From sequence record PZ452610.1: a stretch of 64,000 nucleotides of DNA; one strand, 5' to 3'. Position 1 is the stretch's first letter. Every line of letters starts with the position of its first letter. The translations under genes were made by a program, and so were the position numbers. The DNA is from a phage. Positions 4,118 to 56,759 of the stretch are shown one piece after another. The notes under the pieces are model-generated. The model made no database searches. It saw only the letters and a program-made list of their open reading frames with translations, and was not told the origin of the DNA.

Positions 4118-4573
4118 TTAAGCTTTACGAGGAGACACATAGCGAGTGATTTCAGATTCTTTAACAACTCGGAAGTCACCTAAGAATACGATATTGTATA
4201 ACTTTTCACCATCTTCAACCCATTGGTCACTAATGAAGCCACACATGGTATCAGTTGTGCTTGGATAGCCGTATTCATCGATGAAGTCAAATTCTTTATC
4301 AGTCTGGAATTCAACACCTTTACACAAGGCCCATTTGAACTGTGCATTAGGTTCAGTAGAAGCAAAATGAGCGCTCACATGAGTTTCCAAGAATTTAGGA
4401 CTTACGTAAGCATATTGAGTATCCTGACGTCCAAAACTAGGAATGATTCGAACTTTAACTTCTTTAATACGTCCCATGCCATTTGTGCGAAGTCCGACAA
4501 CTTCAACCAGACGACCTGCGGCTTTAGAACGGGATGCAGTTGATACACGCTTAATTTCACCAATAGTAATCAT
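4118..4573 (-). CDS. Hypothetical protein, 151 aa; paralog B
   Basis: C-terminal motif GFISDQWVEDGEKLYNIVFLGDF; ATG 4573 with SD AAGAGAGA; own promoter. Confidence 0.6.
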   Translation of the reverse strand: MITIGEIKRVSTASRSKAAGRLVEVVGLRTNGMGRIKEVKVRIIPSFGRQDTQYAYVSPKFLETHVSAHFASTEPNAQFKWALCKGVEFQTDKEFDFIDEYGYPSTTDTMCGFISDQWVEDGEKLYNIVFLGDFRVVKESEITRYVSPRKA

Positions 4574-4601
4574 AATTTCTCTCTTTGTTTAAATTGAATT
4601 C

Positions 4602-4630
4602 ACTATACTCCATCCATCCTTGGATGTACA
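4602..4630 (-). promoter_or_regulatory. Early promoter variant (TGTACA - spacer - TATAGT) for paralog B
   Basis: Minus strand GTACATCCAAGGATGGATGGAGTATAGT; same CCAAGGATGG spacer family as the 5159, 47180 and 48200 promoters. Confidence 0.45.
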
Positions 4631-4633
4631 ACA

Positions 4634-5128
4634 TTAATTTAGAATATTAACCACAGCACTACGTGGAACTACACTAAAATCACCTGCATGAACAACGTTC
4701 AGAAGTTCAACACCGTCTTCAATCCACTGGTCAGTTACCCAGCCACTTACCGGTCCAGCGAATGGTCGACGAATTGAAACTGCTTTACACAACAAGTCTG
4801 TAGGCTCGATAGGTTTAACTAAAGTACCGTACATAGAAGCGATGTCCATATCAAAGTGGAGACCATCTTTAACAGGTGCTTCTCCAATCAACAGTTCAAA
4901 GTCGGTGCTTGGAAGGGCGGTAGTAGAAATTGTACCATATGAATTTTTAATTTCTAAGAATAACCAAGGGCCTTCAGCTTGTTTGATGAAGTTAACAATA
5001 GTGAAACTATTACCTTGAGTGGCACCTAAAATTTCACAAAACTTTTCATAAGCTCGCACTGAAGCACCGTACCAGTTGATTTGTTTTTCGTCTTTCAGGA
5101 TGTAAGTGGCCGTAGTATTGATATTCAT
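4634..5128 (-). CDS. Hypothetical protein, about 164 aa; paralog C
   Basis: C-terminal motif GWVTDQWIEDGVELLNVVHAGDF; track start is TTG 5170, ATG 5128 (MNINTT...) preferred. Confidence 0.55.
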   Translation of the reverse strand: MNINTTATYILKDEKQINWYGASVRAYEKFCEILGATQGNSFTIVNFIKQAEGPWLFLEIKNSYGTISTTALPSTDFELLIGEAPVKDGLHFDMDIASMYGTLVKPIEPTDLLCKAVSIRRPFAGPVSGWVTDQWIEDGVELLNVVHAGDFSVVPRSAVVNILN

Positions 5129-5158
5129 AATGGTTTCCAGTTTGGTTAAGATAGAAAG

Positions 5159-5188
5159 ATTATACTCCAACCATCCTTGGTTGTAAAC
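5159..5188 (-). promoter_or_regulatory. T4-type early promoter (GTTTAC - 18 nt - TATAAT)
   Basis: Minus strand GTTTACAACCAAGGATGGTTGGAGTATAAT; near-identical copies at about 47180 and 48200. Confidence 0.55.
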
Positions 5189-5193
5189 TGTTT

Positions 5194-5871
5194 TTATCGC
5201 TGTTTTACACTTAACGGGTCAGGATTCTCAGGGACATCTTCAAGGCCAAGCGCATAACGCTGAGCATATTTTAACATCAAAATATCTTTAGCACAATCAT
5301 GAATACTATCATGGGCAACGAATCCTTTTAGCGTACCCATCGGTAATGGACACATACTTAATCCTCGTGTCAACGAGTAAGCTTCGATTGCTGTACGAAT
5401 ATCACGTTGAGCCCAGAATTTAACCGGTTCTAATTTATCAGTATCAATATCTGGTTCAAGAACACCTTCATCACGATAGAGGTCACGAATCAAATCGACC
5501 AAGATCGGGAAGTCAAAGCTCATACCACGGCACCACATCTGTGATTTCCATTGGTCAACTTTATTAGCTCGACAATAATCTAAAAAGATTTTAATGCCTT
5601 CAAGCGTAGTGACATCGTCTTCAGACGGAGCCAAGTTTTTACGTGCTTCAGCCGATTGTTCTTTCCACCATTTCATAGTGGATTTAGCGAAAACTCGCTT
5701 CCCTTTCTGAGAAGCTAAATTAAATTTAATTCGCTTACCTCGTTGAACAAGTTCTTCAAATGATTCAACAACTTCAGGGTCGGAATTATATGCAATAACC
5801 GCAAGGTCAATAACAGCCGCTTTTGATGTATTGCCGAATGTTTCAAAGTCTATAATAACATCAGTGCTCAT
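5194..5871 (-). CDS. dexA: Exonuclease A (DexA), 3'-5' exonuclease
   Basis: 225 aa, N-terminus MSTDVIIDFETFGN (DEDD exonuclease motif I); immediately downstream of dda as in T4. Confidence 0.85.
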   Translation of the reverse strand: MSTDVIIDFETFGNTSKAAVIDLAVIAYNSDPEVVESFEELVQRGKRIKFNLASQKGKRVFAKSTMKWWKEQSAEARKNLAPSEDDVTTLEGIKIFLDYCRANKVDQWKSQMWCRGMSFDFPILVDLIRDLYRDEGVLEPDIDTDKLEPVKFWAQRDIRTAIEAYSLTRGLSMCPLPMGTLKGFVAHDSIHDCAKDILMLKYAQRYALGLEDVPENPDPLSVKQR

Positions 5872-5880
5872 AATTTTCTC

Positions 5881-7194
5881 TCAAATAAAATGGACGTCAA
5901 AACGACCACGAGTCGTGCCGACATACAATAACTGTTTAGCTAATTCTGAATCGGCATAATGGATACACGGTGTATAAACAAAGGCCGTGTCAACAGACAT
6001 ACCCTGGGCCTTATGGAAGGTTGATACAGGTAGTGCCTTCACCTTAGTGAACATACGTTTAGCATCCCAGAATTCGCTCCATGGAGCTTTACCGCCTTTA
6101 TTCCAGAATTTATATGTTTCTGCGGTCTTAGCCAAAAACAAATTGAATTTATAAAGCTCTTCTTCAGAAGAAATAACCTTTATATCTTCACGGATGTATT
6201 CTTCATCATCACTATATGTTTCTACTGTAAGATTCCAGTATCGTATCATATATTCGCCTGAAACACCGCGTGCTTTAACGAATGTAGACGTTTCTACAGC
6301 ATCTCGAATACGAACGAATTGCCCGTTATTGAAAAGCATTTCGGTCATATTTTTGCCATCTAGCTTATATGTCTTAGTAAATGGCTCTTGTAGAACAATG
6401 ACTTCGTCTTTAATAAATGGCTTTTCTGTTTCGAGAAGTTTTCGGCGAATAATTGAATTTAACTTGTCCACCGACTTATTTGTGAATGCCATCATTCGAT
6501 TTTCGAAAAGGTCTTCAGGAGTTTTAACGACGTTAAAATAGTTCATCATATACGATTTAAGGTCTGTATATCCATGAACACCGTGCCCATCAACTACTTT
6601 ATCGTAAATCCATTTGCCATTACGAATATCAGTCGCAACATCAATAATTGGCGCATTGCTACGTTTAACTTCTGTAAGGTTGCATTGCACGAAGTCTTTG
6701 TGAGTGAAGAAAGGACTTAGATACGCAGTTGATTCGCCTGGGTCTACCGGACGAATCTGGCATCGGTCGCCGATTCCAATTACTGTGCACCATTTAGGGA
6801 TACTAGCTAACATTATTTTAAACAGAGGACGGTCGCACATTGACGCTTCATCAAATAACAGTACACGACACAAGGCTAAGTCGGGAACCTTTTTCTGTTC
6901 AAACAATACGTTTTCTTCGTATGTAGTTGGGTTGATTTTAAGAATGCTATGAATAGTCGATGCTTCTTGACCCGCAAGTTTGCTTAGAACCTTTTTAGCA
7001 GCATGTGTAGGGGCTGCTAAAATAATACCTGATTCTCCGGCAGAAATAAGAGCTTCAACGATGAATCTAGTAAGGGTTGTTTTACCTGTACCAGCAGGCC
7101 CATTAATAGTTACGTGATGTTTCTTTTCTTTAATAGCGTTCATAACAACGTTGAAGGCGTTTTTCTGGCCTTCAGTCAAATCATCAAATGTCAT
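5881..7194 (-). CDS. dda: Dda DNA helicase (SF1B)
   Basis: 437 aa; N-terminus MTFDDLTEGQKNAFNVVMNAIKEKKHHVTINGPAGTGKTT closely matches T4 Dda as I recall it; Walker A present. Confidence 0.95.
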   Translation of the reverse strand: MTFDDLTEGQKNAFNVVMNAIKEKKHHVTINGPAGTGKTTLTRFIVEALISAGESGIILAAPTHAAKKVLSKLAGQEASTIHSILKINPTTYEENVLFEQKKVPDLALCRVLLFDEASMCDRPLFKIMLASIPKWCTVIGIGDRCQIRPVDPGESTAYLSPFFTHKDFVQCNLTEVKRSNAPIIDVATDIRNGKWIYDKVVDGHGVHGYTDLKSYMMNYFNVVKTPEDLFENRMMAFTNKSVDKLNSIIRRKLLETEKPFIKDEVIVLQEPFTKTYKLDGKNMTEMLFNNGQFVRIRDAVETSTFVKARGVSGEYMIRYWNLTVETYSDDEEYIREDIKVISSEEELYKFNLFLAKTAETYKFWNKGGKAPWSEFWDAKRMFTKVKALPVSTFHKAQGMSVDTAFVYTPCIHYADSELAKQLLYVGTTRGRFDVHFI

Positions 7195-23910: not shown

Positions 23911-24312
23911 TTATAGATTCGGTTTATATGATTTAAATGTTTCGAATTCGCCTTTATTCATAAGAGCTTTGAATTCGTCAGGACGCATAGCTTTGTCGTC
24001 GATAATCCAATCATATACTGGTTTATGTGTTAGCAAATTATGGTACTTCAAACCAATGTTTTCCAAGTTCTGAATCAGACTTGGGAGAATGTCAATTGCT
24101 ATACGACCAGGACCTACTGACTTCATACCGCGAGCAGTGTAAAGCGTTATGGTATGCCCTGCATCATACAGGGCATTAATAGCAGTCACCATTTCGACGT
24201 CTGGTTTGAAGTTCACGTAATCACGATTGTTATTCCACTCTGTTATACAATCATCGACATCAAAACAAAGATTAAGCATGTTTTCTACACGGTGCATTAG
24301 ATTCGTTCCCAT
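23911..24312 (-). CDS. HAD-superfamily phosphatase-like protein, 133 aa
   Basis: N-terminal FDVDDCIT (HAD motif I-like), TLYTARG (motif II), KPVYDWIIDD (motifs III/IV). Confidence 0.6.
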   Translation of the reverse strand: MGTNLMHRVENMLNLCFDVDDCITEWNNNRDYVNFKPDVEMVTAINALYDAGHTITLYTARGMKSVGPGRIAIDILPSLIQNLENIGLKYHNLLTHKPVYDWIIDDKAMRPDEFKALMNKGEFETFKSYKPNL

Positions 24313-25982
24313 TGATGAGTGATATCGCCACCGATTGGACGATAAGAAACACCAGTTTCTTTATCAGTTAGTACCCATTTACCAGGATTTTTTGTAATCA
24401 GAGTAGCCGTTACAGGTTCTGCTACGTCATAACTAATAGAGCCGTCCTGAAGTACACGGCCCATGTTACGTAATTGCTTAGTCAGAAGTTCCATACCTTT
24501 ATAATATGCGGCTACCGCTTTAAGTGGATTATTCTTGAAATAACCACCTAATGCAATCCAGATAATTGCTACAGCCAAATGATGATACTCGTTAAACGAA
24601 CTCATCTTTCCATATTTGTAAACTAATGGATTGATGTTAATAGTCACATTACAAGTTGTTTCGTCAATAGTAAACTGTCCCCAGGTCGGATTAGCGTTGA
24701 ATTCATCATAACCTGAAACAGCATAAAGCACTTTAGCTTCATCATACAATTTTGGCCCGTAAATCTTGGTTTCGCCAAAATATCCACGAGGGTCGATAAA
24801 CTTGACTTCGCCGTTATCAGTAATCATAGTATTACTGAAGTTCGGGTCACCGTGAATAACAGAGTACTGTCCCTGAGAACGGGTATGATAACGAATAAGA
24901 TGTTCTAAAGCTTGCTTCAGCATTGGCTTCAGACGTCCAATCTTAGTGTAGTTCACGTGTGTGATTTTACCAAATGAATCAATCAATGGCTGAATGCTTT
25001 CACAACGATCAATAACTTTCGTATAGAACTCTTTAGTGAAATCACGGCGAACAGTTTCAGGACTTACAAAATAAGTGTCTGTGCTGAATTTCAGTGCATC
25101 TAAAATTGCATCAACAATTTGTGGACGAGCAAGACTTGATTTGGATTTAATATATTCAAATGCTGGCTTACCTTTAATACGTTCCATTTCAAAATTATTT
25201 TCATTTACCGAAACTAACTGAGGAACTGAATCTGATTTCACTTTCAAATACCATGAAATCTCATCTTTTTGAAGAGCTCGACCTTGTTCGGTTAACGCGA
25301 ATTTAGTTACAGTTTCTTCGCCAATTTCAACTGCATTAAAACTACGATTAAGTTCACGAACTTCATGAGCTTTTTCAAGTTTAGGCATATCACCTAAATC
25401 AATTAGATTCATAAGCTCTGATTTATTGAATGCACTGCCGTAAAGGAATTCTACGAAATCACGTCCTTTGCAGTATTCATGAATTTCCTCATCAGTAGAA
25501 CCCATGTAGAATTCCCAGTCTTTGAACTGATAAATTCCTACAACATTACCGCCTGTTGAACCTACGTTAGTGATATTTTCACCATCGAAATTATATCGAC
25601 ATTCATCACCCTTAACATAGATTGCGTTAACATTCCAAGACCATGAACCAAAATCAGGAATAATATCACACCAGTTAACAATTACGTTATGGCCATCTAA
25701 ATCTTTGTATAATTTAGCAAGAGCATAAGCAGAACCATACGCTTCATCAACTGTACGAATAGTCACATTGAACCCTTCTTGCTCGCAATAAGCTCGAACA
25801 GTTTCAGCAAATTTTGAATGAACTACTACAATAATTTCATCTGCGCCAAGGTCAGAATAAATTGTATACAAATTGCTCAGAATAGTGTCTTGTTTATAGT
25901 TAACAAGAACTTTTGGAATATGATGCGTTATTGGATACAAACGAGTTGCCAGTCCAGCACCAAGAATAACAGCTTTTTTCAT
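24297..25982 (-). CDS. Bifunctional sugar-1-phosphate nucleotidyltransferase / APH-type sugar kinase
   Basis: 561 aa; N-terminus KAVILGAGLATRLYPITHHIPKVLV (NTP-transferase G-x-G-x-R-L); C-terminus HGDPNFSNTMITDNGEVKFIDPRGYFG (APH/ChoK catalytic loop). Confidence 0.75.
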   Translation of the reverse strand: MKKAVILGAGLATRLYPITHHIPKVLVNYKQDTILSNLYTIYSDLGADEIIVVVHSKFAETVRAYCEQEGFNVTIRTVDEAYGSAYALAKLYKDLDGHNVIVNWCDIIPDFGSWSWNVNAIYVKGDECRYNFDGENITNVGSTGGNVVGIYQFKDWEFYMGSTDEEIHEYCKGRDFVEFLYGSAFNKSELMNLIDLGDMPKLEKAHEVRELNRSFNAVEIGEETVTKFALTEQGRALQKDEISWYLKVKSDSVPQLVSVNENNFEMERIKGKPAFEYIKSKSSLARPQIVDAILDALKFSTDTYFVSPETVRRDFTKEFYTKVIDRCESIQPLIDSFGKITHVNYTKIGRLKPMLKQALEHLIRYHTRSQGQYSVIHGDPNFSNTMITDNGEVKFIDPRGYFGETKIYGPKLYDEAKVLYAVSGYDEFNANPTWGQFTIDETTCNVTININPLVYKYGKMSSFNEYHHLAVAIIWIALGGYFKNNPLKAVAAYYKGMELLTKQLRNMGRVLQDGSISYDVAEPVTATLITKNPGKWVLTDKETGVSYRPIGGDITHQWERI

Positions 25983-26023
25983 GTTGTGGTCCTCATTGGT
26001 AAGTAGGTGTATTGTACACTATT

Positions 26024-26167
26024 CTAGTTAAAGCATTCATACTTTGCTTGTAGTCCAATCATAATCCATCCAATTACAAGTGTTGGAATCATTACTGGAG
26101 CCGTTAAGCTCCAGTAGATAGTCATGACAAGCATCAATAGTAAAAGTCCTATTGTTATTGCTTTCAT
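26024..26167 (-). CDS. Possible small membrane peptide, 47 aa (not in ORF track)
   Basis: ATG overlaps the TGA of the SIS gene (ATGA coupling); MKAITIGLLLLMLVMTIYW... hydrophobic. Confidence 0.3.
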   Translation of the reverse strand: MKAITIGLLLLMLVMTIYWSLTAPVMIPTLVIGWIMIGLQAKYECFN

Positions 26168-26799
26168 TGTTCGCCTCGTAACATGGCACCTAGTGCACCG
26201 CCTGGATGGAACTTAAGAAAGTCATTAGAGGTAAATCCACGTTCAGACGAAAGGTTGATAGCAAACGTATCGATAAGCGCTAACAACAATGTAGTGGACA
26301 TAGTCGGAGCCAGAGAATTCTCATCAACCTCTACCGCGATGCCTGTACAGAAAGAGTAATCAAAAAGGGCTTCATTTTCTTGCGGAATGTCTGGGTTACA
26401 ATGCAACAGAATCTGTTTGACATTTGGACGAATCATTTTAAGATGCTTAGCCACGCCTATCATTTCTTCAGTCTTACCAGAACGACTAATATGAATCAAC
26501 ACATCATTAGGCGCAATGAATCCTGCATCACCGTGAGAATAATGCCCAGTGTTCAAGTACATACTCGGGATACCGAGTGAAGCAAATGTCTCAGAAGCTT
26601 TAGTTGCAATATTAGCATTCTTACCAACACCTGTAATAATTACTCGGCTTTCATAATTACTAAGTCCAGGGCGTCGAAGAGTTTCTAGAATAGCATTATA
26701 ACGAGCAGGGTTTTGACTAATTACTTTGGCCATAGCGGCCAAAGAAGAAGCTTGTTTTATGATTGCGTCAATAGCGATAGTAATAGGAGTAGTTTTCAT
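26164..26799 (-). CDS. Arabinose-5-phosphate isomerase-like SIS-domain protein (KdsD/GutQ type, no CBS domains)
   Basis: 211 aa; VIITGVGKNANIATKASETFASLGIPS...HGD...HISRSGKT and C-terminal HPGGALG parallel the E. coli KdsD SIS domain. Confidence 0.8.
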   Translation of the reverse strand: MKTTPITIAIDAIIKQASSLAAMAKVISQNPARYNAILETLRRPGLSNYESRVIITGVGKNANIATKASETFASLGIPSMYLNTGHYSHGDAGFIAPNDVLIHISRSGKTEEMIGVAKHLKMIRPNVKQILLHCNPDIPQENEALFDYSFCTGIAVEVDENSLAPTMSTTLLLALIDTFAINLSSERGFTSNDFLKFHPGGALGAMLRGEQ

Positions 26800-45891: not shown

Positions 45892-46196
45892 TATAATGTT
45901 CTCTCAAATTTGTGGAAGCATTTACGGCATTTCAATTTCAAGTTATCACTGGTCCAGTTAACCAGTTGGACTTGGATAGTTCCACATTCCGGACATGGAT
46001 GTTTTGCTGCCGATTTGGCAGCATTTTCACGTCGTTCAACCATTTTCATGATTTCGTTCCATGCTGGAGGAACGAACTCTTCTTCACCGTGGATTTTATC
46101 TCGCTGAACAAATTCAATCTTTGAACTATCGTCAATAAACTTAACCAAGCGGTGATTAGTGTTCATATCAATATCCTCTAAAAGACGTAGTTTCAT
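45891..46196 (-). CDS. Zinc-ribbon protein, 101 aa
   Basis: C-terminal CPECG...CRKC. Confidence 0.5.
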   Translation of the reverse strand: MKLRLLEDIDMNTNHRLVKFIDDSSKIEFVQRDKIHGEEEFVPPAWNEIMKMVERRENAAKSAAKHPCPECGTIQVQLVNWTSDNLKLKCRKCFHKFERTL

Positions 46197-47140
46197 TATA
46201 ACACCTCAATGGCATTTCGTAAACCATCCGCTTTCGCATTCAGAGCTTTTAACGATTTAGTCTGTTCTTTAATCTGGGCTTCGACTTCTTTCAGACGAGA
46301 TTTGAGATATTCGCGTTCTTCGGCCATGATATCGACCTTTTCTGCTTTAGGTTCTTTAATAGGCTTAAACACATTAGGGTTCTTCAGTTTAATTTTAATT
46401 CGAGAACTGAATAACATTGAACCGTTATCTTCGGTTTCGTCGAACATTTCAACAACATCCATAGTCTGTAACATCATGCGAAGTTTATAAGACAGAGAAC
46501 GAATGGTTTTGTTGCGCTTATTAATTTCTTCGGCTTTCATGGTACCGAGATTACGTGAGTAATAATAAGGAACCTGGATATCAATTGATAACGATGCGTT
46601 ACCATTACCAGTTGGTTTGAATACTGCAGTAACCCAATCTTTAACATGAACTTTATTTGTACGACCATCGCCGCCTGTGAATAATTTACGTGAATGTTTA
46701 AAAAGCATATTCACTTGGTTATTGAATTCACAAGCAAATTTATCAGCAAATTTAGTTTCAGGAATGGTGGAGAACCAATCAGCTAAATGAGTCTTTTTAA
46801 CATCATTAACAATAGTGAATTCAACCAAATCGGTTTTAGATGTCACAGATTTAATAAAGCTCGGTTTCATAAAGTTTTTAATGTTATCACGAGCCACAGT
46901 AGAAGATAATAAACGAGAACGTTTGAACCATTGAAGCAACGTCCCTAATGAATGAGAATATGCATTTTGAGTATCTTTACAGATATGATTTTCTTGGCCT
47001 GTGTATGTACCAAAATCGCGAAGAATACCACTTACTACATCTCGGTGTGGAACATCAAATCCTAATGAACCAGAAGCACGTTGGGCATGAACGTTAGCGA
47101 TAAGACCTGCAAAGTATTCAATGTAATGTGAACGTGTCAT
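46196..47140 (-). CDS. Hypothetical protein, 314 aa, C-terminal coiled coil
   Basis: First of three consecutive 314-331 aa ORFs, each behind a near-identical early promoter. Confidence 0.6.
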   Translation of the reverse strand: MTRSHYIEYFAGLIANVHAQRASGSLGFDVPHRDVVSGILRDFGTYTGQENHICKDTQNAYSHSLGTLLQWFKRSRLLSSTVARDNIKNFMKPSFIKSVTSKTDLVEFTIVNDVKKTHLADWFSTIPETKFADKFACEFNNQVNMLFKHSRKLFTGGDGRTNKVHVKDWVTAVFKPTGNGNASLSIDIQVPYYYSRNLGTMKAEEINKRNKTIRSLSYKLRMMLQTMDVVEMFDETEDNGSMLFSSRIKIKLKNPNVFKPIKEPKAEKVDIMAEEREYLKSRLKEVEAQIKEQTKSLKALNAKADGLRNAIEVL

Positions 47141-47179
47141 AATATTTTCCTCTCGTTAAGATAGATTCATTATACTCCA

Positions 47180-47210
47180 ACCATCCTTGGTTGTAAACTA
47201 TTTTATGATT
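47180..47210 (-). promoter_or_regulatory. Early promoter (GTTTAC - CCAAGGATGG spacer - TATAAT)
   Basis: Plus strand attatactccaaccatccttggttgtaaac; same as the 5159 promoter. Confidence 0.55.
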
Positions 47211-48162
47211 TTAACGCATTCATTGCGTTAAAAAGTTTAGAATACTGCAACTGGAGATTCGTTACAACACTTTGAGCATCACGAAGCTTAGCTTGTGCTT
47301 TGTCAAGTTCAACAGACAGTTGGTCCATAGTGGCCTTGATTTGATTGTAATGGTAATCTTCGGCCGGAAGAAGGTCATTAGAAACATTTAGTTTTACTGC
47401 AGACAGTTTGCACACATTTGGCAAACCTTTAAACATTGATTTACCCGAAGTAGAATAAGCACTTAGGACTTCGGCCTGTTCAATTGGGGTCCCAGTAAGC
47501 GATGCTTCAAACAATGCATTTTCCTTTTTAAGATTTTGATAATATTCGGAGTCTTTGTGCCACCATGGCGCAGGAACCTTTTTACCAATAGATACACGAG
47601 CCTGGATAGCGATATGGCCCTTATTCTTGATAAGGTCGATAATATTAAGCTCACGAGAATAAATCGCTTTAATCTGGTGGATATTATCACCTAAAACTTC
47701 CAACGCTTGGTGGAATACACGAGCGACATTATCATTCTTAGGTTTATACGTAAGAGTGAACTCATTCTCACTGATAACCATGATTTCCAACTTATCGTAA
47801 GTATATTTCAAATGTTTCATGTTAATTGCTTGAGGACGAATACGAGAAGCAATGGCCATCAGATTGTTAAGGTTATTCCGGAACTGCTTAGCGAAATATT
47901 GTCCTTCACCGCCAATACAAAAATTACGAAGTTTCTGTTTGGCCAATAAACGGCTGAACTCACCATTTTTAATGAACTCTTTAACGGGTGTGTTAGTAAC
48001 GCATTCAAATTGAGTAAACTTACGAGAAGTAATCCCATAATATGAACAGATTTCCTCAATCTCTTCAGGAGTCTTTACAGGCATACGGATAGGATTAGGT
48101 CCTGGAGTATATGCGTTCGAGGTAAATTCTTTGATAAGTTCTCTACGTGTAATAAAAGCCAT
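47203..48162 (-). CDS. Hypothetical protein, 319 aa, C-terminal coiled coil
   Basis: ORF with own promoter. Confidence 0.6.
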   Translation of the reverse strand: MAFITRRELIKEFTSNAYTPGPNPIRMPVKTPEEIEEICSYYGITSRKFTQFECVTNTPVKEFIKNGEFSRLLAKQKLRNFCIGGEGQYFAKQFRNNLNNLMAIASRIRPQAINMKHLKYTYDKLEIMVISENEFTLTYKPKNDNVARVFHQALEVLGDNIHQIKAIYSRELNIIDLIKNKGHIAIQARVSIGKKVPAPWWHKDSEYYQNLKKENALFEASLTGTPIEQAEVLSAYSTSGKSMFKGLPNVCKLSAVKLNVSNDLLPAEDYHYNQIKATMDQLSVELDKAQAKLRDAQSVVTNLQLQYSKLFNAMNALKS

Positions 48163-48199
48163 TTTATATTCCTCATGTTGAAAAATTTATTATACTCCA

Positions 48200-48230
48200 A
48201 CCATCCTTGGTTGTACATCATTCCTTAAGA
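48200..48230 (-). promoter_or_regulatory. Early promoter of the same family (TGTACA variant)
   Basis: Plus strand ttatactccaaccatccttggttgtacat. Confidence 0.5.
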
Positions 48231-49213
48231 AGTTTTACTACCTGAATAAGATTAGCTCGTTCTGTTTTATTTTTACCGTTTAAGCCTGCTAATCGTGAGA
48301 TTTCATCGTCAGTCTGTTGAATAGTTACATTAAGTTCGTTAATCAAAGCTTCAAAGTATTTGATTTGCTCAGCATGTTTTGATTCAAATTTCTGAACCGG
48401 AATAACGTCTTGGTTCAGTTCATCAATAAGGTCTTTAAGAGCATCTTCTTGGTTGATATCATATTCAACTTCTTTTATTTCTTCAACGAGCTCGTCTTTA
48501 TATCTAACGTCTTTTAGTCCTGGAGCTGGTCCTGAAATCTCTTCTTTAAGAGTACAAACATACCCAATACGGTATCCAACGCCGTCTCGCTTGATATCAA
48601 CTTCGTCGATAAATCCACAATGTTTAAGTCCAGAGCCGATTATGTCAAAATATCCTTGACGTCGTCCTTCAAACGTTACACGAACTACTAAGACGGTTTT
48701 GCCACCGACCTTTTGAAGCTCACATTTATAAAAGTTTGTTGAACCTGAATAACATGGATGAGTTTTAAAGTTCATCTGACGATCTAGGCCCATTTGTAAA
48801 CGTGCTGTTACGGCCATAAAACGTGTTTGGTTCTCGTTAAGATGAGCAACAATCCATTTCAAAGGCATTTTACCCTGTTCACGGCCGAACAAATCAGTAC
48901 GTCCTAGATTACGCAGGATGTTGTTAGAGTTAATCATCGACAGAACGTTAAGTTTATTCAGCGCGCTGAAGATTCCATCAGCCATTGATTTTCCATAACC
49001 TTTACACGCTTTAATAAGTGCTCGCGGCAGATTAGTATAGATTTCAGACGGCATATGAAAATCAAATTTACTAGTCAGTAATTGATGAACTTGGATAGCA
49101 ATTTGCTCATAATTAAGTGCTCTGCGATCGTTATGGTCTTTAAACCATACTTTAATCTGTGAAGCACATAAACCGTTAATTTCATGTTTTACCGCATCAG
49201 ATGTAATGCTCAT
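48218..49213 (-). CDS. Hypothetical protein, 331 aa, C-terminal coiled coil
   Basis: ORF with own promoter. Confidence 0.6.
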   Translation of the reverse strand: MSITSDAVKHEINGLCASQIKVWFKDHNDRRALNYEQIAIQVHQLLTSKFDFHMPSEIYTNLPRALIKACKGYGKSMADGIFSALNKLNVLSMINSNNILRNLGRTDLFGREQGKMPLKWIVAHLNENQTRFMAVTARLQMGLDRQMNFKTHPCYSGSTNFYKCELQKVGGKTVLVVRVTFEGRRQGYFDIIGSGLKHCGFIDEVDIKRDGVGYRIGYVCTLKEEISGPAPGLKDVRYKDELVEEIKEVEYDINQEDALKDLIDELNQDVIPVQKFESKHAEQIKYFEALINELNVTIQQTDDEISRLAGLNGKNKTERANLIQVVKLLKE

Positions 49214-49275: not shown

Positions 49276-49803
49276 TTATGCGTGAACCGACTTTAAACGT
49301 TCTTCAAATTTCCGAAGAGTACTAATACGTTCTGCTTTCTGTTTTGTATAGTTTGCAATACGTTCTGAAGTGAGAGCGTATCGTTCGTTTACTGTTTCTT
49401 TCATGAAGTCAGGGATTTCACGAGAAGCTTTAATTTCATCAAACTTATCGAGTACTGCCTGGTCTTCAGCAATTAAATTTTCGTACATCTCGATATCTTT
49501 CTTGATGAAGTCGATATCTTCCTGGGTTACTTTGGATAAACGAGATGCTTTATCCTTTTTGTACTGCTCGTTAGTTTCACGAGACCAGAATAATGTACGT
49601 TTTTTGTTAGTGTTTTTGTAGACTTCCACAATTCCAACTGAATCGATGATAACAATCCAATTCCAGCGAGATTTGAAAATCTGACCTCCGTCCACGGTAA
49701 TCTCGTTACCATAAGCAATGTCATTAAAGAACTTACTTTGTGCTTCGGATTTAAATTTACCGTCGTTATAATTTACCAGGTTGAAAATATCTTTAGCGTT
49801 CAT
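49276..49803 (-). CDS. Hypothetical protein, 175 aa
   Basis: ORF; promoter GTTTAC - 17 nt - TATTAT at 49824-49858 upstream. Confidence 0.55.
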   Translation of the reverse strand: MNAKDIFNLVNYNDGKFKSEAQSKFFNDIAYGNEITVDGGQIFKSRWNWIVIIDSVGIVEVYKNTNKKRTLFWSRETNEQYKKDKASRLSKVTQEDIDFIKKDIEMYENLIAEDQAVLDKFDEIKASREIPDFMKETVNERYALTSERIANYTKQKAERISTLRKFEERLKSVHA

Positions 49804-49823
49804 GTTTTACCTCCAGTAGTTGA

Positions 49824-49858
49824 TAGGTCTATAATAACATAACCATAGACCTTGTAAA
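49824..49858 (-). promoter_or_regulatory. Early promoter (GTTTAC - 17 nt - TATTAT) with inverted repeat AGGTCTAT/ATAGACCT
   Basis: Minus strand GTTTACAAGGTCTATGGTTATGTTATTATAGACCTATC. Confidence 0.55.
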
Positions 49859-50287: not shown

Positions 50288-51289
50288 TTATTTCAGTAAA
50301 GTAACTTCCGAGATTTCTTCCCAACCATCTTTATCAGTTGAAATAAAATCTGCTACATAAAGAGCCGTACGTAATGATACATTGCGAAGACGAGATACGT
50401 TAGCCTTCATCCAGGACAATGCTTTATACGTTTCTGCATCCGTCAGACCACGTTTCTGCATCATGTCAGTAGATAATATTACATCTTCAACTCGAACCAT
50501 AATCTCTTCATTAGAGTGTACTCCAAGGTCGAGATACACTGAACGAGATACTAAAGCTTGAAGGTGTGGAGCAAGTTTCGAACCCCGTTCTAACTCTTTA
50601 TCGATATCAACGTTTGTAATGAAAACGATAGTACCTTCAAACTCAAATTCTTTATCAATACCCTTATCCTCGAGATAAGATGACGCAGTGCTCCAACAAA
50701 CTTTGCGTTTATCTCCGGTATCTAATGCTGCTTTAAGAAGGTTCAGGATGTCCATATCTGAGAATACGTCAACGTCATCGATTAAGAGAACGCTGTCTTC
50801 ATCACGGTTGAGCCAAAGTTGTTCGTAAAGGCCAATACCAGAGATTTTACCATTAATGCTTTTGTATTTGATGAAACCATTATCATTAGCATTATTAAGT
50901 GCTTTATCCAGAGAATACGTCTTACCAATACCAGCTGCACCTGAAATAATGAGTGAACGAATTTTGCCATCGATAATGCCATTCGTCATCATGTTCATTA
51001 CTTTAAAGCGTTTGTTGATACGGGTTTTCATATCTTCAGTGCTTTCAACAACTGCAACTGGTGATGTCTCAACTCCTTCCATTACGATGTCTGATTTGAA
51101 GACCCATACTCCACGTTCAGAACCATCAATCATAACGAAAATTTTACCATCACCTAAGTGGGAACATTCAGGATTAAGCTTTGCCGGGAACCAGGTCTTT
51201 GTGGCAACATAAGAACCAGAGATTTCGTTATTACGATAGATACCTTTTTTGATTTGAACGTTGAACATTTTATTCTCCAATTTACTCAT
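50288..51289 (-). CDS. P-loop ATPase, 333 aa
   Basis: Walker A GAAGIGKT, Walker B VLLIDDVD. Confidence 0.65.
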   Translation of the reverse strand: MSKLENKMFNVQIKKGIYRNNEISGSYVATKTWFPAKLNPECSHLGDGKIFVMIDGSERGVWVFKSDIVMEGVETSPVAVVESTEDMKTRINKRFKVMNMMTNGIIDGKIRSLIISGAAGIGKTYSLDKALNNANDNGFIKYKSINGKISGIGLYEQLWLNRDEDSVLLIDDVDVFSDMDILNLLKAALDTGDKRKVCWSTASSYLEDKGIDKEFEFEGTIVFITNVDIDKELERGSKLAPHLQALVSRSVYLDLGVHSNEEIMVRVEDVILSTDMMQKRGLTDAETYKALSWMKANVSRLRNVSLRTALYVADFISTDKDGWEEISEVTLLK

Positions 51290-51357
51290 TTCGTTTCGAT
51301 AGGTCTATAGTATCATATCCTAAAAGCATGTACACTACTTTTTAAAAATATTTTAAC

Positions 51358-51385
51358 CCCCTAAAGGGACCCGAAGGTCCCCACA
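51358..51385 (-). terminator. Hairpin GGGACC-TTCG-GGTCCC
   Basis: Perfect 6-bp GC stem with UUCG loop after the 51387..51653 gene. Confidence 0.55.
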
Positions 51386-51386
51386 T

Positions 51387-51653
51387 TTACTTATCACACT
51401 TAGCAACATAATTAGGCATATCACAGAATACAGAGCGAGTAACTACTCGACCCTTTGACCATGCTTCAGTTGCTTGTCCGGCCGTGCTATTAATATAGCT
51501 TGATTTAATGTTCTCAATACCCTGAGAATGTGATGCATTTACCGAACCGTTAGAAGGCCCAGAAGACTGGTTACCACCAGCTCCTGCGCCCGTGGTAGCA
51601 CCAACAGAGAATGCCATCATTACTGCGAATAAACCAATTACTAATTTTTTCAT
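51387..51653 (-). CDS. Secreted small protein, 88 aa
   Basis: Signal peptide MKKLVIGLFAVMMAFSVGA; Gly/Ser/Asn-rich mature region. Confidence 0.5.
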   Translation of the reverse strand: MKKLVIGLFAVMMAFSVGATTGAGAGGNQSSGPSNGSVNASHSQGIENIKSSYINSTAGQATEAWSKGRVVTRSVFCDMPNYVAKCDK

Positions 51654-51684: not shown

Positions 51685-52674
51685 TTATTTATAGTAAGAA
51701 TTATGATTTTCGAGATAGACTTGCTCAAGGAAGTCATCCCAGAAACTCATATCTACTTTTTGTTGCATACCGTTCTTAGCGGCTTGTTCTGACGCATGTT
51801 CAACTTGGTCAACGATATCTTCTAGGAATTCTTGCACAGTTTTAAACGTATGTTTACCAAGCTTAACATCGAGAATAAATGGAGCATCCTGAAGTGGGTA
51901 AACCAGGTCGCCGGTTTTGTAAATTTCCAATAATTGAAGTCCACCACGACATGCATGACTCAATGCTTTCCAGTCAATACCTTCGTTAGCTTCTGCCTTA
52001 CGAGCACGTTCGCCATAGTTCTCTTCCAGTTTAACCAGGATGGCATTGAACTCTTTATTGGTTAACGTATCTTGGAATTTACGGTCTAACAGATTATAGA
52101 ATGTTTGCTTACCTGTTTTCTCGTTTTCGGTTTCAACCCATGAAGCAAATTCACCTACAGGCAGAACATTCTTCATATGTGATAAACGAATTACTGCACC
52201 ATTATCAAAGTATTGTCCCCATTCATTAGAACGTTTAAGGGCTTGACGAAGAACAGCCAGTCGAGAACCCTTGACACCGTATTTAGAAGCTTGCTTACGG
52301 ACATACCCTAAATAAGATTTCATGTTAGTGGTATAGAAACGAGACCTGTTATCTTGAATATACTTCCATACATCAGGCAAATCAGATTTAACTACTAGAC
52401 TTTGTGGAGTGTGAAGCATATCTAATGCGACGGTTTCACCATCTGCAGCTAGTTTAAAGAAATATTTGAGACTATATAACTCATGGTCCACGTCGTCTTT
52501 TGTGTTCTTAGAAGATGTGTTATTCGTGTTCTTGCTCATGTGTTCTTTAACGTTACCGGTCAAGATATCACGAGCATGAGGGACATAAATTTCTTTAAAA
52601 TCGACGTCAGATTCAGGAGTAGACGTTCCATAAAGGTGGCTACCAAAGTAGCCTTTCATAATTGTTTTCATCAT
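51685..52674 (-). CDS. Pol-beta-superfamily nucleotidyltransferase-like protein, 329 aa
   Basis: N-terminal GSHLYGTSTPESDVDF fits the G-S-x9-13-D-x-D nucleotidyltransferase signature. Confidence 0.6.
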   Translation of the reverse strand: MMKTIMKGYFGSHLYGTSTPESDVDFKEIYVPHARDILTGNVKEHMSKNTNNTSSKNTKDDVDHELYSLKYFFKLAADGETVALDMLHTPQSLVVKSDLPDVWKYIQDNRSRFYTTNMKSYLGYVRKQASKYGVKGSRLAVLRQALKRSNEWGQYFDNGAVIRLSHMKNVLPVGEFASWVETENEKTGKQTFYNLLDRKFQDTLTNKEFNAILVKLEENYGERARKAEANEGIDWKALSHACRGGLQLLEIYKTGDLVYPLQDAPFILDVKLGKHTFKTVQEFLEDIVDQVEHASEQAAKNGMQQKVDMSFWDDFLEQVYLENHNSYYK

Positions 52675-53144
52675 TTAGCCTTATATTCAAGAGTAGGACA
52701 GACTTTTTCTTTACGAGCTTTAAGGTATTCGCCTATTAATGATTTCTTACGTTCAATAGGCTCAAGTCCATTTTTAATTCGTTCTTGGTTTTGCGCAATG
52801 AGCTCAATTTCTTTATAATATTTTCTGTCGTTATATTTGTCTAACAACCAAGACGGACCAATTACCAACCCGGTAGCAATAAAAGCCATGACTGCTACAA
52901 TTAAAATGCCTACACCAATTGAGGCTGGAACTAATGTCCATAGACTGCTAAAAACAAAGAATTTAGTTAAAATTTCCTGGCCAATGATTGTGACTGCTGC
53001 TAAAATCGCAAATCCAATAATTGAAACAGCCAATACCGGGATTAACGTTTTCCAAAAATAAGCACACAACGTTTTCGGACGATTCCATGTACTATTGAAC
53101 GCGGCATAAATTTTAAAGTGCCAAGAGTTTTCATTGATAATCAT
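52671..53144 (-). CDS. Membrane protein, 157 aa
   Basis: Two or more TM segments. Confidence 0.5.
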   Translation of the reverse strand: MIINENSWHFKIYAAFNSTWNRPKTLCAYFWKTLIPVLAVSIIGFAILAAVTIIGQEILTKFFVFSSLWTLVPASIGVGILIVAVMAFIATGLVIGPSWLLDKYNDRKYYKEIELIAQNQERIKNGLEPIERKKSLIGEYLKARKEKVCPTLEYKAK

Positions 53145-55079: not shown

Positions 55080-55661
55080 TTATAACAACCCTGTCAAATC
55101 ATTCCAATGCTTCCGGCATAATGACACGTATCTATCGGTATCACCAATTTCAATTTGACTGCCATCTGTAATTGGAAGTCCGTCTTCCGTGACTCTAGCT
55201 ACCATTGTGGCCTTTTTACCGCAATGACAGACACCTTTAAGTTCAACAAGCTTATCGGCAATAGCCATTAATGCTTGAGAACCTTCAAATAGATTACCTT
55301 TAAAATCTGTTCGTAGTCCATATGCCATTACTGGCACATTGTATACGTCAACAATACGACTAAGTTGATACACCTTTTCAGTAGTTAAGAACTGAGCTTC
55401 GTCAACAAATACACAGTGAATATCCTTTTGTGCTGCAGCCCATTTATAGAATTCAAAGATATCCATGTCTTTTGTAATTATATTGGCATCCTGACGAATA
55501 CCAATACGAGAGACTATTTCACCTTTTGAATCACGAGTATCAATAGCCGGTTTAAGAACTAATACACCCATGCCACGTTCTTTATAGTTATGTGCGGCAG
55601 TAAGTAATGAAGAAGACTTACCAGCGTTCATAGCGGCATATGTAAAAATTAAACTAGCCAT
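55080..55661 (-). CDS. tk: Thymidine kinase
   Basis: 193 aa; Walker A AAMNAGKSS, zinc ribbon CHCGKK...CRKHW. Confidence 0.95.
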   Translation of the reverse strand: MASLIFTYAAMNAGKSSSLLTAAHNYKERGMGVLVLKPAIDTRDSKGEIVSRIGIRQDANIITKDMDIFEFYKWAAAQKDIHCVFVDEAQFLTTEKVYQLSRIVDVYNVPVMAYGLRTDFKGNLFEGSQALMAIADKLVELKGVCHCGKKATMVARVTEDGLPITDGSQIEIGDTDRYVSLCRKHWNDLTGLL

Positions 55662-56056: not shown

Positions 56057-56265
56057 AACCATGTCACCTTTAAGCAATATTCTTCTACATGTTGTTTACG
56101 GCCTTTCTTATCAATAAAGGTATATTCAACGAATGTTCCGATGTAGTCTTTATCTACATCATGTGGACTATTAATTGGACATTTGGTACGACAAATGCGT
56201 TCCCATTGACGAATAATTACTGCCTTATTCTTTGGGTCATATGGATGTGGATAATGTATATTCAT
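56053..56265 (-). CDS. Hypothetical protein, about 70 aa (tk.3 position)
   Basis: ATG 56265 overlaps stop of the macro-domain gene. Confidence 0.45.
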   Translation of the reverse strand: MNIHYPHPYDPKNKAVIIRQWERICRTKCPINSPHDVDKDYIGTFVEYTFIDKKGRKQHVEEYCLKVTWL

Positions 56266-56759
56266 AATAACGGTTCCCAATCAACAATCACAATTTCTAG
56301 TTTAGTGGAATACGTATCTAAAATCTCTTCGATGACATCCCAGTTTCCGCCACCGATACCTGCACCAATTCTTGGCATATAAATTACAGGCTTTGTTATC
56401 TTATTCTTTCCGAATTCATTTAATTCTATTATACAATTCATTAAAGCAGAGTACTCAAAATTAGGTCCCGGCTCAAACTGCGTATAAAGATTAAAGCAAT
56501 AAGCTTTATGGGTCTTAAAATATTTTTCATAAACCGAATAAGTCCCGAGTTTAGACTCGTCTCCGAATTCGGTTTGAAGTTTATCGGCTTCCAGAATTTT
56601 TGGATAAGCCTTTGCTAATTGTCCTGCCACACCGGCGCCCATTGTATGAAAACAATTACACCCATGAGCAATATTATTACCTTTAGAAAACAGGGCGACA
56701 ATATCGCCCTTGATATAGTTTTTAATCACTTGCTGCAAGTCCTCTAGTATAAGAGTCAA
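56262..56759 (-). CDS. Macro-domain protein, putative ADP-ribose binding/hydrolase (tk.4 position); non-ATG start
   Basis: 165 aa; Gly-rich motifs NIAHGCNCFHTMGAGVAGQL and PRIGAGIGGGNW typical of macro domains. Confidence 0.65.
   Translation of the reverse strand: MTLILEDLQQVIKNYIKGDIVALFSKGNNIAHGCNCFHTMGAGVAGQLAKAYPKILEADKLQTEFGDESKLGTYSVYEKYFKTHKAYCFNLYTQFEPGPNFEYSALMNCIIELNEFGKNKITKPVIYMPRIGAGIGGGNWDVIEEILDTYSTKLEIVIVDWEPLL

Follow-up and report, generated by a model that had tools for sequence, protein, structure and literature searches.

The open reading frame (ORF) at positions 51685-52674 of the phage DNA stretch PZ452610.1, analysed as a window of 64,000 nucleotides, is the Mosigvirus ortholog of the T4 gene nrdC.11 and encodes an RlaP-family nucleotidyltransferase (NTase; PF10127, 'RNA ligase-associating Pol-beta'). 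By analogy with characterised members of this family, the protein is rather likely to function in the repair of nuclease-damaged RNA, by a Mn2+-dependent attachment of one or two nucleotides at the 3'-OH end that is followed by ligation by Rnl1 or Rnl2. The original prediction, made from the letters of the DNA alone, had noticed a nucleotidyltransferase beside an ATPase and did not recognise the named T4 genes nrdC.11 and nrdC.10. The observation is real; the gene is already known and annotated, and no new kind of system is involved.

The assignment to nrdC.11 is based on overall identity and gene order. Positions 1-62200 of the window are 99.99-100% identical to the genome sequence of E. coli O157 typing phage 3 (NC_041863.1; Mosigvirus, Tevenvirinae), and the NTase is 100% identical to the RefSeq protein FDG79_gp224, which is annotated as 'nucleotidyltransferase'. 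Over its full length the protein shares 78% identity with the T-even proteins designated nrdC.11 in RB14 and other records, and the neighbouring ATPase gene carries the name nrdC.10 in the entries of JS98 and Acj9. Domain assignments published in 2006 already gave nrdC.11 a COG3541 nucleotidyltransferase domain and nrdC.10 an AAA ATPase domain (PMC1524935). The location in the nrdC-tk accessory region, as originally proposed, agrees with the gene order, which runs from tk (55080-55661) via rI and further genes to the NTase, the ATPase and, after additional genes, the nrdC thioredoxin gene. Like its T4 ortholog, the gene thus occupies the early region between tk and nrdC and lies upstream of nrdC.10; unlike in T4, a small secreted-protein gene separates nrdC.11 from nrdC.10 in the Mosigvirus allele, and a nearby mobD homing-endonuclease gene is missing. 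Many GenBank and UniRef homologs of nrdC.10 and nrdC.11 are labelled 'thioredoxin', an annotation error inherited from the nrdC prefix.

The deduced protein of 329 aa (amino acids) opens with MMKTIMKGYFGSHLYGTSTPESDVDF; the RefSeq start lies one codon further downstream and yields 328 aa. The GS...DxD signature that had been noticed originally is present as GS-x10-DxD at aa 11-25, comprising G11, S12, ten residues and D23-V-D25. The protein matched the Pfam family RlaP with 49.5 bits (gathering threshold 23, E = 5.9e-13) as well as PHROG 388 'nucleotidyltransferase' (E = 4e-126), and all 240 homologs among the matches listed carry PF10127. Homologs were represented by 3242 clusters at 50% identity (E <= 1e-3), and the gene was found in 1574 phage records. 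PADLOC and NCBIfam gave no match for the NTase, the ATPase or four neighbouring proteins. The ORFs on the plus strand across this stretch are short and mechanical; tblastn detected conservation in the minus-strand frame only.

Residue conservation was read from two independent alignments of 51 and 61 sequences that include relatives at 34-56% identity; a usable alignment called for a profile query, since the first homolog search returned near-identical sequences only. G11, S12, D23 and D25 are invariant in both alignments, D61, D63 and D85 are invariant in one and nearly invariant in the other, and Y132, R223, K236 and R243 are fully or almost fully conserved. The Pfam and PHROG matches, the 3242 cluster representatives and the invariant residues clearly indicate that the GS-x10-DxD motif is not a chance match. 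With the hG[GS] loop, an [DE]h[DE] motif 9-13 residues further on and a third carboxylate on a later strand, the Pol-beta signature is complete. From sequence conservation and the structural model, D23, D25 and D63 probably form the catalytic triad, the assignment of D63 drawing additionally on an hhalign comparison that places it opposite the invariant aspartate of canonical short RlaP proteins. D85 had been considered as the third carboxylate and was dropped in favour of D63 because of the strand position of the latter and this alignment.

An AlphaFold2 model calculated from 61 diverse sequences was confident (predicted local distance difference test score of 87.7) and contains the alpha/beta palm-like core of the Pol-beta fold, in support of the Pol-beta-type enzyme originally proposed. 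The core is composed of a strand (3-10), the GS helix (12-15), the DxD strand (24-31), a further strand (45-49) and the strand 62-68 that carries D63, and is followed by helices up to approximately residue 155, a three-stranded sheet (177-201) and a helical C-terminal region (206-328). The closest solved folds were those of HalB, KNTase/ANT and MNT/HEPN-type proteins. Structure prediction had been suggested for a comparison with CD-NTase, MNT and Pol-beta folds; the last of these was found, whereas cGAS, CD-NTase and DncV are absent from the fold matches listed, and the protein does not consist of an NTase core of ~100-150 aa with an adjacent HEPN toxin, as would be expected for an MNT. The ANT(4'), ANT(3'')(9) and MNT-HEPN modules, whose acceptors are antibiotics or the HEPN toxin, reached template modelling (TM) scores of 0.24-0.35 at 8-12% identity. 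Moreover, the HEPN motif R-x4-6-H was not evident among the conserved residues, H240 and R243 standing in the reversed order H-x2-R. In sequence searches of the PDB, the protein itself and two profiles of the family retrieved spurious matches only.

The genomic context of the subfamily was analysed at loci with a full-length relative of the NTase, 79 of them viral and 80 bacterial or archaeal. Bacterial and archaeal counts refer to 77 loci, as three further ones resemble phage contigs; distant viral loci are those with an NTase of 40-46% identity, and the relatives used for context are 33-46% identical, of the same length and with the same partial Pfam match. Genes of RNA repair lie in the neighbourhood of the NTase in relatives from six loci (L107, L089, L083, L074, L146 and L144; Table 1 for the first five), and none was found at the phage locus itself. 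The tightly packed operon of an uncultured Nitrosospira (L107) unites components of two RNA-repair systems, Rtc and Pnkp/Hen1, and in the distant viral locus L083 the fusion of an HD domain with a polynucleotide kinase would be an end-healing enzyme in which HD replaces the HAD phosphatase of T4 Pnkp. Within 6 kb of the NTase, the 77 bacterial loci encode RtcB-like proteins (5 loci), RtcA (2) and Ro60 vWA domain proteins (2), and a bacterial Pnkp is located near the NTase in 2 of them. The RtcB-like neighbours represent a real enrichment, because a single-copy gene is expected in well under 1% of random 12-kb windows.

A second recurrent feature of the bacterial loci is a canonical short RlaP gene (~255-290 aa) located directly downstream of the long type (~310-330 aa) on the same strand, at a distance of -28 to +280 bp, in 12 of the 77 loci. 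This tandem arrangement suggests a division of labour between paralogs that are not redundant. BLAST clustering of the bacterial neighbours revealed no dominant partner besides the short RlaP. The presence of the long subfamily in heal-and-seal cassettes, its pairing with the short RlaP in bacteria and its independence from the AAA+ ATPase are the modestly new results of the present analysis. The idea that such enzymes restore nucleotides is already in the literature, in a preprint of 2025 (PMC12776372) and, according to citing papers, in Burroughs and Aravind (2016).

The biochemical framework for this family was provided by a preprint of December 2025, according to which the RlaP proteins of P. 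fluorescens and P. aeruginosa add one or two nucleoside monophosphates (NMPs), or the corresponding deoxynucleotides (dNMPs), to the 3'-OH of RNA, with a preference for Mn2+ and, in a nicked-tRNA mimic, for its 5' half, whereas DNA and protein do not serve as acceptors (PMC12776372). These enzymes partly rescued the aminoacylation of a tRNA that lacked one anticodon-loop nucleotide, and RlaP was proposed as an antidote to nucleotide-excising nucleases such as RloC; its product, a 3'-OH end, is awkward for RtcB and ideal for 5'-phosphate ligases such as T4 Rnl1 (PMC12776372). The discoverers of RloC had suggested that nucleotide excision would 'encumber' the tRNA repair of phages (PMC2610378), and in a survey of jumbo phages the distribution of RlaP mirrored that of RNA ligases (PMC7824862). 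The phage protein resembles the Pseudomonas enzymes (PF10127 cluster 1a) in the core with GS, DxD and third aspartate, in the order of an N-terminal NTase domain and a helical C-terminal region, and in having subfamily relatives that share operons with RtcB, RtcA, Pnkp, Hen1 and Rnl1. In the crystal structure of PfRlaP, the C-terminal helical domain forms a cleft with the NTase domain, and the last helix packs back on the latter.

By analogy, D23, D25 and D63 of the phage enzyme would hold two divalent metal ions, probably Mn2+, and one or two NMPs would be transferred without a template to a broken RNA at its 3'-OH. During infection, nucleotides trimmed from a tRNA that was cleaved by a host anticodon nuclease, for instance by RloC-type excision of the wobble nucleotide, may be put back in this way. 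The step would fall after end healing by the phage Pnkp and before sealing by Rnl1 or Rnl2, and the adjacent AAA+ ATPase would be dispensable. We infer the activity of the phage enzyme, its tRNA substrate and its role in counter-defence from the enzymes described above. Rnl1 (gp015), Pnkp (gp022) and Rnl2 (gp063) are all encoded in the public genome to which the window is identical, at distances of ~54-84 kb from the NTase gene. T4 tolerates a deletion of the region nrdC.11-mobD.3 (PMC9825161), which fits a conditional accessory role. In the record OL964745.1, named Escherichia phage T4, nrdC.11 is reduced to its last 39 codons (49712-49828); this is a natural or laboratory deletion and is consistent with a dispensable gene.

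Several points weigh against a repair function of this kind. The match of the phage protein to PF10127 is partial, covering aa 7-152 and profile positions 23-148 of 249, and hhalign aligned the long subfamily with the canonical short RlaP only over aa 6-92 (probability 73%, E = 3e-5), that is, over ~80 core residues at the profile level. The C-terminal halves of both types remained unaligned, the model of the long type having the helices 206-328, and ~70 extra residues of the phage type, including the 177-201 beta-sheet insert, are without a counterpart in the short RlaP, so that substrate or product could differ. A direct comparison of the full-length folds is further limited, as searches of PDB copies did not turn up the crystal structure of PfRlaP. 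The known enzymology is confined to two Pseudomonas enzymes and includes no phage RlaP, it stems from one un-reviewed preprint whose authors concede a low fidelity of repair, and T4 NrdC.11 was placed there in cluster 5 of the PF10127 similarity network, marked 'of unknown function' (PMC12776372). The phage gene is located outside of a ligase operon; rnlA, pseT and rnlB are not adjacent to nrdC.11 here or in T4-like phages generally, and ~57 of the 77 bacterial loci have no recognisable RNA-repair neighbour. The adjacent long and short types of bacteria, moreover, imply non-identical roles.

Among the alternative functions, an addition to other RNA 3' ends, for instance in the mending of trimmed tRNA 3'-CCA ends or in the tailing of host or phage transcripts with an effect on their stability, is improbable, yet is the one that survives best. 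It is in line with the labelling of rRNA- and tRNA-sized species and of single-stranded RNAs by the Pseudomonas enzymes with all four nucleoside triphosphates, and with the lack of linkage between nrdC.11 and ligase genes in T4-like phages. Additionally, 5 of 22 distant viral loci (L072, L074, L075, L077 and L079) encode a HD phosphohydrolase of ~170 aa 0-790 bp downstream of the NTase. This gene order, which also counts towards the RNA-repair context of the subfamily, is reminiscent of class II CCA-adding enzymes with their NTase+HD arrangement. However, members of the subfamily are located within cassettes of ligase, kinase and phosphatase genes, the 5' half of the nicked-tRNA mimic was preferred over the 3' acceptor end, and the host already possesses a CCA-adding enzyme. 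Tailing of tRNA or RNA, one of three functions that were originally offered, is accordingly retained in the form of the RlaP-type addition of one or two nucleotides during repair.

An obligate two-gene system of nrdC.11 and nrdC.10, in which the ATPase might remodel or deliver the substrate, is unlikely, and the pairing that was implied by the original prediction amounts to local synteny. The neighbouring ORF does encode a P-loop ATPase, as had been stated, with Walker A GAAGIGKT at aa 117-124 and Walker B VLLIDDVD at aa 167-174 of the 333-aa ORF, and the alpha-beta-alpha core, helical lid and arginine-finger region identify it as a member of the AAA+ class; translation probably starts at M8, since the RefSeq protein comprises 326 aa and most homologs 325-326 aa. 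This gene is located within 8 kb of the NTase in 31 of 40 viral loci with an NTase identity of at least 57%, and in four Acinetobacter-phage loci, whereas it is missing from the other 9 of these 40, from all 23 loci at 46% identity or less and from the 77 bacterial loci. Conversely, Vibrio phage ValKK3 and two jumbo phages encode homologs of the ATPase with no NTase gene close by, and the records of the NTase and the ATPase differ in their host counts, with 295 versus 149 for Klebsiella phages and 59 versus 121 for Vibrio phages. The spacing of both genes is variable, with unrelated genes inserted between them, and BLAST detected no similarity of the ATPase to the MoxR-type AAA_5 protein of the Nitrosospira operon. 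These data clearly indicate that the ATPase is a neighbour in some phages and not a conserved partner of the NTase. Weak evidence in the same direction comes from the hairpin and promoter-like element, described below, that separate the ATPase gene from the 88-aa gene.

It is quite improbable that the enzyme, like ANT/KNTase, LinB, DrrA or GlnE, nucleotidylates a protein or small molecule, with a host factor or metabolite as target; protein nucleotidylation had likewise been considered originally. The fold does resemble DrrA, GlnE and ANT, but only weakly (TM 0.24-0.35, 8-13% identity) and through a common Pol-beta core with a helical bundle, E. coli proteins were not labelled by Pseudomonas RlaP, and the genomic context of the subfamily is that of RNA repair.

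Least probable of all, at a very small chance, is a synthesis of nucleotide signals, either by a HalB-like, primer-independent oligonucleotide synthase or by a cGAS/DncV-like enzyme, with a product acting as signal or decoy. Its support consists of two findings: the best structural match is HalB (PDB 9dbh), a producer of tyrosine-primed oligodeoxyadenylate that is paired with the HalA channel, and the start codon of the NTase gene is overlapped by a membrane-protein gene; it would take a considerable stretch to regard the long NrdC.11-type enzymes as acceptor-independent synthases that, for instance, resupply the oligodeoxyadenylate keeping the Hailong HalA channel closed, perhaps together with this translationally coupled membrane protein. 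Identity to HalB is only 15%, and neither sequence similarity to HalB or HalA nor a HalA channel partner was found; PADLOC matched neither the NTase nor the membrane protein, a homolog of the latter occurs in a single distant viral locus, and no membrane protein recurs as a neighbour in the bacterial loci. The cGAS/DncV-like CD-NTases have only the generic GS...DxD Pol-beta signature in common with the NTase, which lacks a Pfam or PADLOC match to them, a structural match among those listed and a nearby CBASS effector. At the family level, the assignment is to RlaP.

The secreted and membrane proteins that had been predicted to flank the NTase were found as an 88-aa protein with a signal-peptide-like N-terminus and a 157-aa protein with a match to PHROG 944 (Table 1). 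A homolog of the 88-aa protein is present in 2 of 79 related viral loci, and its gene is a sporadic insert. In the sequence ATGATGA, the stop codon of the membrane-protein gene overlaps the start codon of the NTase gene. Of the 79 viral loci, 43 have a homolog of the membrane-protein gene upstream of the NTase, just one of these loci being distant; a sequence search of the PDB with the 157-aa protein gave no match, HalA included. Following the stop codon of the 88-aa gene, a GC-rich hairpin (GGGGACC-TTCG-GGTCCC; 51330-51390, minus strand) was noticed, and past this hairpin, ahead of the ATPase gene, a MotA-box-like TGCTT and a -10-like TACTAT element. From these elements, the ATPase gene may form a separate middle-mode transcription unit; a scan for sigma-70 promoters and terminators performed no better than on shuffled sequence.

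The nrdC.10 proteins, which have a beta-rich N-terminal domain, form an apparently phage-restricted AAA+ family that comprises 408 clusters at 90% identity, and a profile of the ATPase, when compared with the PDB, gave only marginal Walker-A matches to RFC and Cdc6. The homolog of Asteriusvirus jumbo phages is devoid of the N-terminal domain (L165: 5977-6750) and adjoins genes annotated as 'regulator of chromosome condensation', whereas that of Wroclawvirus retains an N-terminal region (L166: 5662-6816).

Three further regions of the window deserve mention. A gene in the place of T4 tk.4, at 3.6 kb from the NTase gene, encodes a Macro-domain protein of 165 aa (56262-56759, minus strand; PF01661, E = 2e-6). 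Macro domains act on derivatives of ADP-ribose, and some of these derivatives are formed in the chemistry of RNA repair or splicing. Beside the DNA polymerase gene, at ~23911-26799 (120941-123829 of the record), RefSeq lists an arabinose-5-phosphate isomerase, a GlmU-like bifunctional enzyme and a phosphoheptose isomerase, a cluster that we presume may be a sugar-nucleotide pathway for an RB69-type arabinosylation of hydroxymethylcytosine. Finally, three consecutive proteins of 314-331 aa and of unknown function are encoded at 46196-49213 on the minus strand (PHROGs 1435, 2351 and 2257), one of which matches DUF7235; those of 331 and 319 aa have weak, sub-threshold C-terminal matches to coiled-coil-type families.

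Table 1. Features of the nrdC.11 region in the window and gene arrangements in loci of long-RlaP relatives (positions in the lower part refer to the respective contig or locus).
Feature	Position	Strand	Remarks
NTase ORF, ortholog of T4 nrdC.11	51685..52674	minus	329 aa (or 328 aa); RlaP-family Pol-beta nucleotidyltransferase, 'long' subfamily
GS loop and first two catalytic carboxylates, D23 and D25	52597..52644	minus	codons of aa 11-26, GSHLYGTSTPESDVDF
D63 codon	52486..52488	minus	probable third catalytic carboxylate, from conservation, hhalign and model; V-D-H opens strand 62-68
AAA+ ATPase, ortholog of T4 nrdC.10	50288..51289	minus	N-terminal beta-rich domain; probable true start 51268
88-aa protein between NTase and ATPase genes	51387..51653	minus	signal-peptide-like N-terminus; PHROG 2243, unknown function
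157-aa membrane protein, upstream of NTase	52671..53144	minus	PHROG 944 'membrane protein'
L107, uncultured Nitrosospira contig CAADGK010000054.1	3712-12060	one strand	RtcB-RtcA-long RlaP-short RlaP-Hen1-AAA_5 (MoxR-type)-601-aa ORF, tightly packed
L089 (bacterial set)			NTase-x-Pnkp(kinase+HAD)-x-Rnl1
L083 (distant viral)	4278-5498 (fusion)		HD+polynucleotide-kinase fusion-Rnl1-type ligase-x-x-NTase
L074 (distant viral)			NTase-x-HD-RNA ligase
L146 (bacterial set)			bacterial Pnkp 2 kb from NTase
Long-short RlaP tandem loci	~6001-6980 (NTase)		L090, L093, L098, L103, L107, L117, L119, L131, L139, L148, L155, L157

RNA repair as a counter-defence was first exemplified by the Pnkp/Rnl1 pathway of T4. 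If it is true that NrdC.11 restores an excised nucleotide, the enzyme would represent the next move in the arms race after the RloC-type nucleases (PMC2610378), and a function would be assigned to a gene that is present in more than 1500 sequenced phages.

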